The text below continues a report generated by a model with database tools. Its subject is a stretch of DNA of 64,000 nucleotides from Patescibacteria group bacterium (GTDB lineage Bacteria > Patescibacteriota > Minisyncoccia > Portnoybacterales > UBA2143): positions 65,980 to 129,979 of the forward strand of contig JAHJSM010000001.1 in the NCBI GenBank assembly GCA_018830295.1, read 5' to 3'. The letters are not shown here.

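Follow-up and report, generated by a model that had tools for sequence, protein, structure and literature searches.

We give about an even chance to the proposal that this locus is a modular and probably horizontally shuffled cell-surface glycan system (or a glycolipid or glycoprotein-glycan system), in which radical SAM enzymes remodel lipid-linked sugars. The locus belongs to a Patescibacteria bacterium, as a cluster look-up of exact sequence matches showed, in line with the CPR affiliation that the initial annotation had considered. Its full extent is 42 kb or more, some 5-6% of the 745-kb contig that is the longest to bear it, and about one third of the 33 kb inside the window codes for nine radical SAM enzymes. 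These are oxygen-sensitive enzymes that are expensive in cofactors, and the surface glycan of this probable episymbiont is likely to be central to its encounters with hosts and phages. At least seven class I methyltransferases are also encoded, while Pfam scans of the window part of the locus found no NAD-dependent epimerase, dehydratase or aminotransferase, and no SDR epimerase. A full-text literature search found no description of radical-SAM-rich glycan loci of this kind.

Genes of the locus discussed in the text, by position in the window (reverse-strand genes marked)
Feature	Position	Strand	Assignment
Phosphoglycosyltransferase	30882		initiating transferase
GT2a	33636		GT2, lipid-sugar synthase candidate
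B12_1	34508		radical SAM, B12-binding domain
UPF0104	35920		flippase-like, LPG_synthase_TM
MT1	36855		methyltransferase
GT-C	37729	-	ArnT/PMT-type candidate
GT2b	39449	-	GT2
SPASM1	40357	-	radical SAM, ~360 aa
GT2c	41432	-	GT2
Wzx	42381	-	flippase
GT-C	43714	-	ArnT/PMT-type candidate
GT2d	45805		GT2, lipid-sugar synthase candidate
DUF2304	46493		GT2d partner
B12_2	46822		radical SAM, B12-binding domain
HddC-GmhB	48252		fusion, heptose pathway
HddA	49538		heptose pathway
B12_3	50534		radical SAM, B12-binding domain
GmhA	51977		heptose pathway
MT2	52557		methyltransferase
B12_4	53246		radical SAM, B12-binding domain
B12_5	54689		radical SAM, B12-binding domain
SPASM2	56111		radical SAM, ~360 aa
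GT2e	57190		GT2
SPASM3	58150	-	radical SAM, ~360 aa
GT2f	59240	-	GT2
B12_6	61394	-	radical SAM, B12-binding domain
Membrane protein	62834	-	579 aa

The domain content suggests that the phosphoglycosyltransferase would start a lipid-linked oligosaccharide, which cytoplasmic GT2 and GT4 enzymes would extend and Wzx would flip. The phosphoglycosyltransferase scored 377.5 with TIGR03025 (cut-off 295.6), and the Wzx flippase named in the initial annotation was borne out by PF13440 (65.4, cut-off 23). Pfam and NCBIfam searches of the locus returned no match to Wzy_C, O-antigen ligase or Wzz, and no oligosaccharyltransferase, ligase or Wzy polymerase was identified there. A remaining candidate for a polymerase- or ligase-type role is the 579-aa membrane protein, which matches no NCBIfam or Pfam family; its sole strong homologue lies in a Nealsonbacteria locus (L012), and a match in another locus (L016) is marginal at 21 bits. 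The candidate GT-C proteins reach 23.4 and 16.4 bits with PMT_2, under the cut-off of 26.1, and the one at 43714 has homologues (40-50% identity) annotated as GT39 that contain PF13231/PF02366. The reverse-strand gene at 29061 was ruled out as a fourth GT-C, having one transmembrane segment and a weak HExxH metalloprotease-like match. A recent duplication of two AAA_14 genes was likewise ruled out, as they are 29% identical.

Homology and conserved gene order further suggest two 'three-component' side branches, each with a GT2 synthase, a flippase-like protein and a GT-C. The synthases, GT2a in the first and GT2d with its DUF2304 partner in the second, would load a single sugar on polyprenyl phosphate, and the ArnT/PMT-type GT-C proteins would transfer it outside the membrane. 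The flippase-like UPF0104 protein is provisionally assigned to the first branch. All the best matches of GT2a are below cut-off (AglJ, 111 against 325; a dolichyl-phosphate hexose transferase, 101; ArnC, 86), as is that of GT2d to PpgS (123.5 against 370). Both partner domains are above theirs, at 72.5 against 25.5 for PF10066 (DUF2304) and 90.8 against 43.2 for the TIGR00374 flippase-like domain. Two DUF2304 proteins, GacJ and Rv3632, are activators of polyprenyl-phosphate-sugar synthases of the GT2 family (10.1101/180810).

The second branch would be supplied by the putative heptose-nucleotide pathway encoded within the locus by GmhA, HddA and the HddC-GmhB fusion. The best NCBIfam match of each heptose gene fits its activity, and GmhB alone passes its cut-off (TIGR00213, 151 against 149.6). 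Because HddA (157 against 600), GmhA (121 against 209) and HddC (99.5 against 300) fall below their equivalog cut-offs, we infer the nucleotide and the anomer. The four-gene set is conserved among relatives. The GDP-D-glycero-alpha-D-manno-heptose pathway (GmhA, HddA, GmhB, HddC) serves the S-layer glycan of Aneurinibacillus thermoaerophilus and the capsules of Campylobacter jejuni. As in that pathway, a predicted SIS isomerase, GHMP kinase, HAD phosphatase and nucleotidyltransferase are encoded together, but in the window HddC and GmhB are fused, and the known heptose tailoring enzymes (SDR/cupin oxidase, epimerase, reductase, dehydratase) are replaced by radical SAM enzymes and methyltransferases. 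We know of no described polyprenyl-phosphate-heptose intermediate. Heptose could instead enter the chain via a cytoplasmic glycosyltransferase, with B12_2 working on GDP-heptose or on the finished oligosaccharide.

Directly 3′ of each lipid-sugar synthase lies a class B radical SAM gene: B12_1 after GT2a, and B12_2 after GT2d-DUF2304. Start and stop codons overlap along the series GT2d-DUF2304-B12_2-HddC/GmhB-HddA and B12_1-UPF0104-MT1. We tentatively propose that the B12_1 and B12_2 families perform an undescribed step of envelope-glycan synthesis, the radical remodelling of polyprenyl-phosphate-linked monosaccharides between GT2 synthase and flippase/GT-C. In the window, B12_1 and B12_2 would act at the cytoplasmic membrane face before flipping, in parallel with the hopanoid pathway, where the GT2 HpnI makes hopanoid-linked glucosamine and HpnJ is believed to contract its ring. 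Candidate outcomes include C-methylation and, on the model of HpnJ and Cds, contraction of the ring of a heptose or amino sugar to give a carbocyclic cyclitol. We rank first a HpnJ/Cds-type skeletal rearrangement or ring contraction, the likely chemistry of B12_2, and second C-methylation or AprD4-type dehydration, which are likely for the other B12 enzymes. Further, strain-variable tailoring may come from the four other B12 enzymes, the three SPASM/twitch proteins and the seven or more methyltransferases, which would substitute for the missing epimerases, dehydratases and aminotransferases.

The six B12-binding radical SAM proteins recognised at the outset held up in domain searches. All six lie above the PF02310 cut-off of 32.1 (57.7-104 bits), and each combines a PF04055 radical SAM core (71.8-98.9 bits) with a single intact CxxxCxxC motif. 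Base-off cobalamin binding is marked by Gly or Gly-Gly on β4 and by Gly-Glu at the start of α5 (PMC9204698). By sequence, these conserved B12-binding residues appear to be kept in every one of the six: GE occurs throughout and GG in five paralogues, while B12_2, like HpnJ, has one G in its place. All six lack the His-on motif DxHxxG; since cobalamin is bound base-off/His-off in solved class B enzymes (PMC9204698), this motif was discarded as a criterion. Across 32 members of the B12_2 family, G108 and E132 do not vary and G131 is conserved to at least 90%. The confident AF2 model of B12_2 predicts a Rossmann domain and a barrel, matching OxsB, TsrM, TokK, CysS and MgmA, and would place the motif residues where strand 103-107 ends and helix 133-145 begins.

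A 'B12' label may not mean B12 use, because the nearest solved structure is AprD4, which has the same fold and is not known to need cobalamin. AprD4 is the top fold match of the B12_2 model (TM 0.74-0.79) and the top solved-structure sequence match for both B12_2 and B12_3. Some or all of the six could be AprD4-like radical SAM enzymes that work as dehydratases or isomerases and in which the Rossmann domain is a vestige; the organism, with its reduced genome, would then need no corrinoid for this locus. Cobalamin synthesis is generally missing from CPR genomes, and searches of the 64-kb window turned up no gene for a corrinoid transporter or an adenosyltransferase; its tRNA and Rfam scans were empty, with no cobalamin riboswitch either. 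However, the sequence matches to AprD4 (residues 206-405 and 166-389) stay within the radical SAM core, whereas matches to the cobalamin binders OxsB, TokK, CysS and MgmA reach into the N-terminal domain. The PF02310 scores and the base-off motifs (PMC9204698) of all six, and the conservation of G108, E132 and G131 in the B12_2 family, also argue for cobalamin use, and we regard cobalamin-free enzymes as rather unlikely.

The three SPASM/twitch proteins of the initial annotation were likewise confirmed, with PF13186 scores of 36.3, 23.7 and 22.0 for SPASM1-3 (cut-off 21.5). They have only 4-5 C-terminal cysteines (C-x17-C ... CxCx3C), against seven in the SPASM set, so a single, twitch-like auxiliary cluster is more likely. 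SPASM-domain enzymes and those of class B are typical RiPP maturases, and weak NCBIfam matches to ApyD, PapB and other maturases would fit a role in maturing a ribosomal peptide or protein, with the glycosyltransferases as mere neighbours or peptide glycosylators. Yet all of these matches are far under cut-off, and Pfam scans of the locus found neither a RiPP recognition element nor a protease or transporter domain. From phylum to phylum, the conserved neighbours are genes for GT2, heptose synthesis, flippases and GT-C proteins. No precursor-peptide gene is present: gaps between genes reach 76 nt at most, and the small ORFs all overlap large genes. With no space for a precursor, we rejected peptide maturation as extremely improbable.

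NCBIfam model scores served as a proxy for the relation of the paralogues to GenK, Fom3, BchE and HpnR, and no B12 protein of the locus belongs to any NCBIfam equivalog. With the HpnJ equivalog TIGR03471 (cut-off 577.6 bits), B12_2 scores 435 and the other five 158.6-234.2, all below it. Several radical SAM enzymes perform carbohydrate or cyclitol chemistry: AprD4 (a 1,2-diol dehydratase), GenK/GenD1/Fms7 (C-methylases), OxsB (ring contraction) and Cds (calditol synthase). They have in common with the window proteins the two-domain architecture of Rossmann domain and radical SAM barrel, and none is known to work in a primary cell-envelope glycan locus. In model comparisons, AprD4 is the best structural match of B12_2, followed by OxsB, TsrM, MgmA, CysS and TokK, at only 14-22% identity.

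B12_2 is 36% identical to annotated HpnJ over its full length, compared with 27-32% to its locus-mates. Its orthologues, 50-85% identical, occur in Parcubacteria, Nealsonbacteria, Chloroflexi, Dehalococcoidia, Thermodesulfobacteriota and Lawsonia. B12_3 has no close relative in species-representative genomes (identity at most 41%). Counting metagenome B12_2 loci with at least 3 kb on each flank, a GT2 lies within 6 kb of the orthologue in 21 of 22 and a heptose gene in 14 of 22; heptose genes are absent from about a third of these well-flanked loci. PpgS-like GT2 and heptose genes co-occur (17/25 versus 3/28, p = 2e-5), in counts that are phylogenetically non-independent and drawn from truncated contigs. 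One relative (L115) has the interleaved order HddC-GT2-B12_2-HddA-GmhA, and the layout of a GT-C beside GT2-DUF2304-B12_2-Hdd recurs in two others (L088 and L093).

The placement of B12_2 and B12_3 among heptose-nucleotide genes also accords with an earlier site of action, in which radical SAM enzymes modify soluble GDP-D-glycero-D-manno-heptose or other NDP-sugars and ordinary glycosyltransferases use the products. They would do so by C-methylation, deoxygenation, epimerisation or oxidation, as a possible, though doubtful, anaerobic counterpart of the GDP-heptose modification enzymes of Campylobacter jejuni. Because the window locus lacks SDR epimerases, dehydratases and aminotransferases, other enzymes must diversify the sugars. 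SPASM2 finds its best match in a MoaA-like core, MoaA being a guanine-nucleotide binder, and the structurally closest enzyme, AprD4, has a free (pseudo)saccharide as its substrate. However, the tie of B12_2 to GT2 is tighter than that to heptose, no nucleotide-sugar genes accompany B12_1 orthologues in their GT2-(deacetylase)-B12-flippase cassettes, and HpnJ, the closest characterised relative, is thought to act on a lipid-linked sugar. We treat tailoring of soluble nucleotide sugars as a tentative alternative to remodelling on the lipid carrier.

The B12_1 family is 63-93% identical across CPR, with further members in Nanoarchaeota (65%) and 'Deltaproteobacteria DG_8' (74%). A GT2 of 286-294 aa lies upstream of the orthologue in all five contexts, LPG_synthase_TM downstream in three, and a Polysacc_deac_1 deacetylase and a nearby PMT_2 GT-C in two each. 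Its cassette resembles the hopanoid side-chain genes hpnI-hpnJ-hpnK, which lead from bacteriohopanetetrol glucosamine to the cyclitol ether, as found on Mycetohabitans rhizoxinica pBRH01, where GT2, HpnJ, deacetylase and LPG-synthase-domain (UPF0104) genes follow one another: the GT2 adds an amino sugar to a lipid, and the class B enzyme HpnJ then remodels the lipid-linked sugar. The window order is GT2a-B12_1-UPF0104, and the Nanoarchaeota order is GT2-deacetylase-B12_1-UPF0104. Unlike in the hpn cassette, the deacetylase of the relatives is Polysacc_deac_1 rather than HpnK, the presumed lipid is polyprenyl phosphate, and in the window a phosphoglycosyltransferase/Wzx/GT-C glycan locus, heptose genes included, surrounds the cassette. 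No hopanoid gene (shc, hpnH, hpnI or hpnK) lies within the 64-kb window, and the locus gave no BLAST match at 1e-4 to HpnI, HpnK or the LPG-synthase-domain protein of Mycetohabitans. The parallel is therefore architectural, since only HpnJ and B12_2 are homologous. HpnJ and Cds are tied genetically to ring contraction of lipid-linked sugars (PMC13459092; PMC9204698), HpnJ being characterised by genetics only (PMC13459092).

With GT2d as a candidate synthase paired with DUF2304, and with a flippase-like protein and putative ArnT/PMT-type GT-C proteins, the locus resembles GacI/GacJ/GacL of the group A carbohydrate. Other three-component systems compared were PpgS/Rv3632/Rv3779, for GalN in mycobacterial arabinogalactan, and ArnC/ArnD/ArnEF/ArnT; as in Arn, relatives of the window cassette have an ArnD-family deacetylase between synthase and flippase. 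Unlike these systems, the window has a class B radical SAM gene after the synthase, and its probable donor is a heptose nucleotide. To our knowledge, no Gac, PpgS or Arn system has a class B radical SAM enzyme in that position.

The same cassettes might glycosylate a lipid, remodel it and flip it outward, so that the product is a membrane glycolipid head group and not a polymer or protein glycan. Hopanoid cyclitol ethers and archaeal calditol lipids offer models, the architecture is that of hpnI-hpnJ-hpnK-LPG-synthase-domain gene, and UPF0104/MprF-type flippase-like domains are known for lipid translocation. Cds and HpnJ both modify lipid head groups (PMC13459092), and the B12_1 family also occurs in a Nanoarchaeota MAG. 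Against this, the phosphoglycosyltransferase, Wzx, at least five further glycosyltransferases and two candidate GT39-type GT-C proteins are together hallmarks of oligo- or polysaccharide assembly, and of a transfer that takes sugars from polyprenyl phosphate to a glycan or a protein. The phosphoglycosyltransferase is kept directly upstream of the GT2-B12_1 cassette. We consider a glycolipid product unlikely.

Outside the CPR, a related cassette occurs on plasmid 1 (NC_008012, 27 kb) of Lawsonia intracellularis, a cultured intracellular member of the Desulfovibrionaceae (phylum Thermodesulfobacteriota). The plasmid encodes a GT2, two DUF2304 proteins, a SIS protein, a B12_2 orthologue (57%), methyltransferases, a second radical SAM enzyme, another GT2, an HddC-GmhB fusion (43%), HddA (47%) and large membrane proteins, including DUF2142 and DUF6077 proteins. 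Its layout is looser: the GmhA-like SIS gene and a small ORF separate the DUF2304 genes from the B12_2 orthologue, and HddC-GmhB and HddA lie ~6.5 kb downstream. Unlike the nine radical SAM genes of the window, it has one of B12 type and one other. A literature search found no paper joining the L. intracellularis plasmid with radical SAM.

One odd locus thus defines two enzyme families, the HpnJ-like B12_2 family with GacI/GacJ-like synthases and heptose genes, and the B12_1 family in the arrangement GT2-(deacetylase)-radical SAM-flippase-GT-C. Both are unstudied, widespread and highly conserved (50-85% identity) across very distant lineages, and one occurs in L. intracellularis, a veterinary pathogen. 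If remodelling on the carrier lipid is correct, ultra-small episymbionts would build carbasugar- or C-branched-sugar-containing surface glycans resistant to glycosidases, and their envelope synthesis would be tied to corrinoids from hosts or neighbours. Characterising both families would show what HpnJ-type enzymes do and could expose a new point of on-carrier sugar modification. It would also test the dependence of CPR and DPANN on external corrinoids for envelope synthesis.

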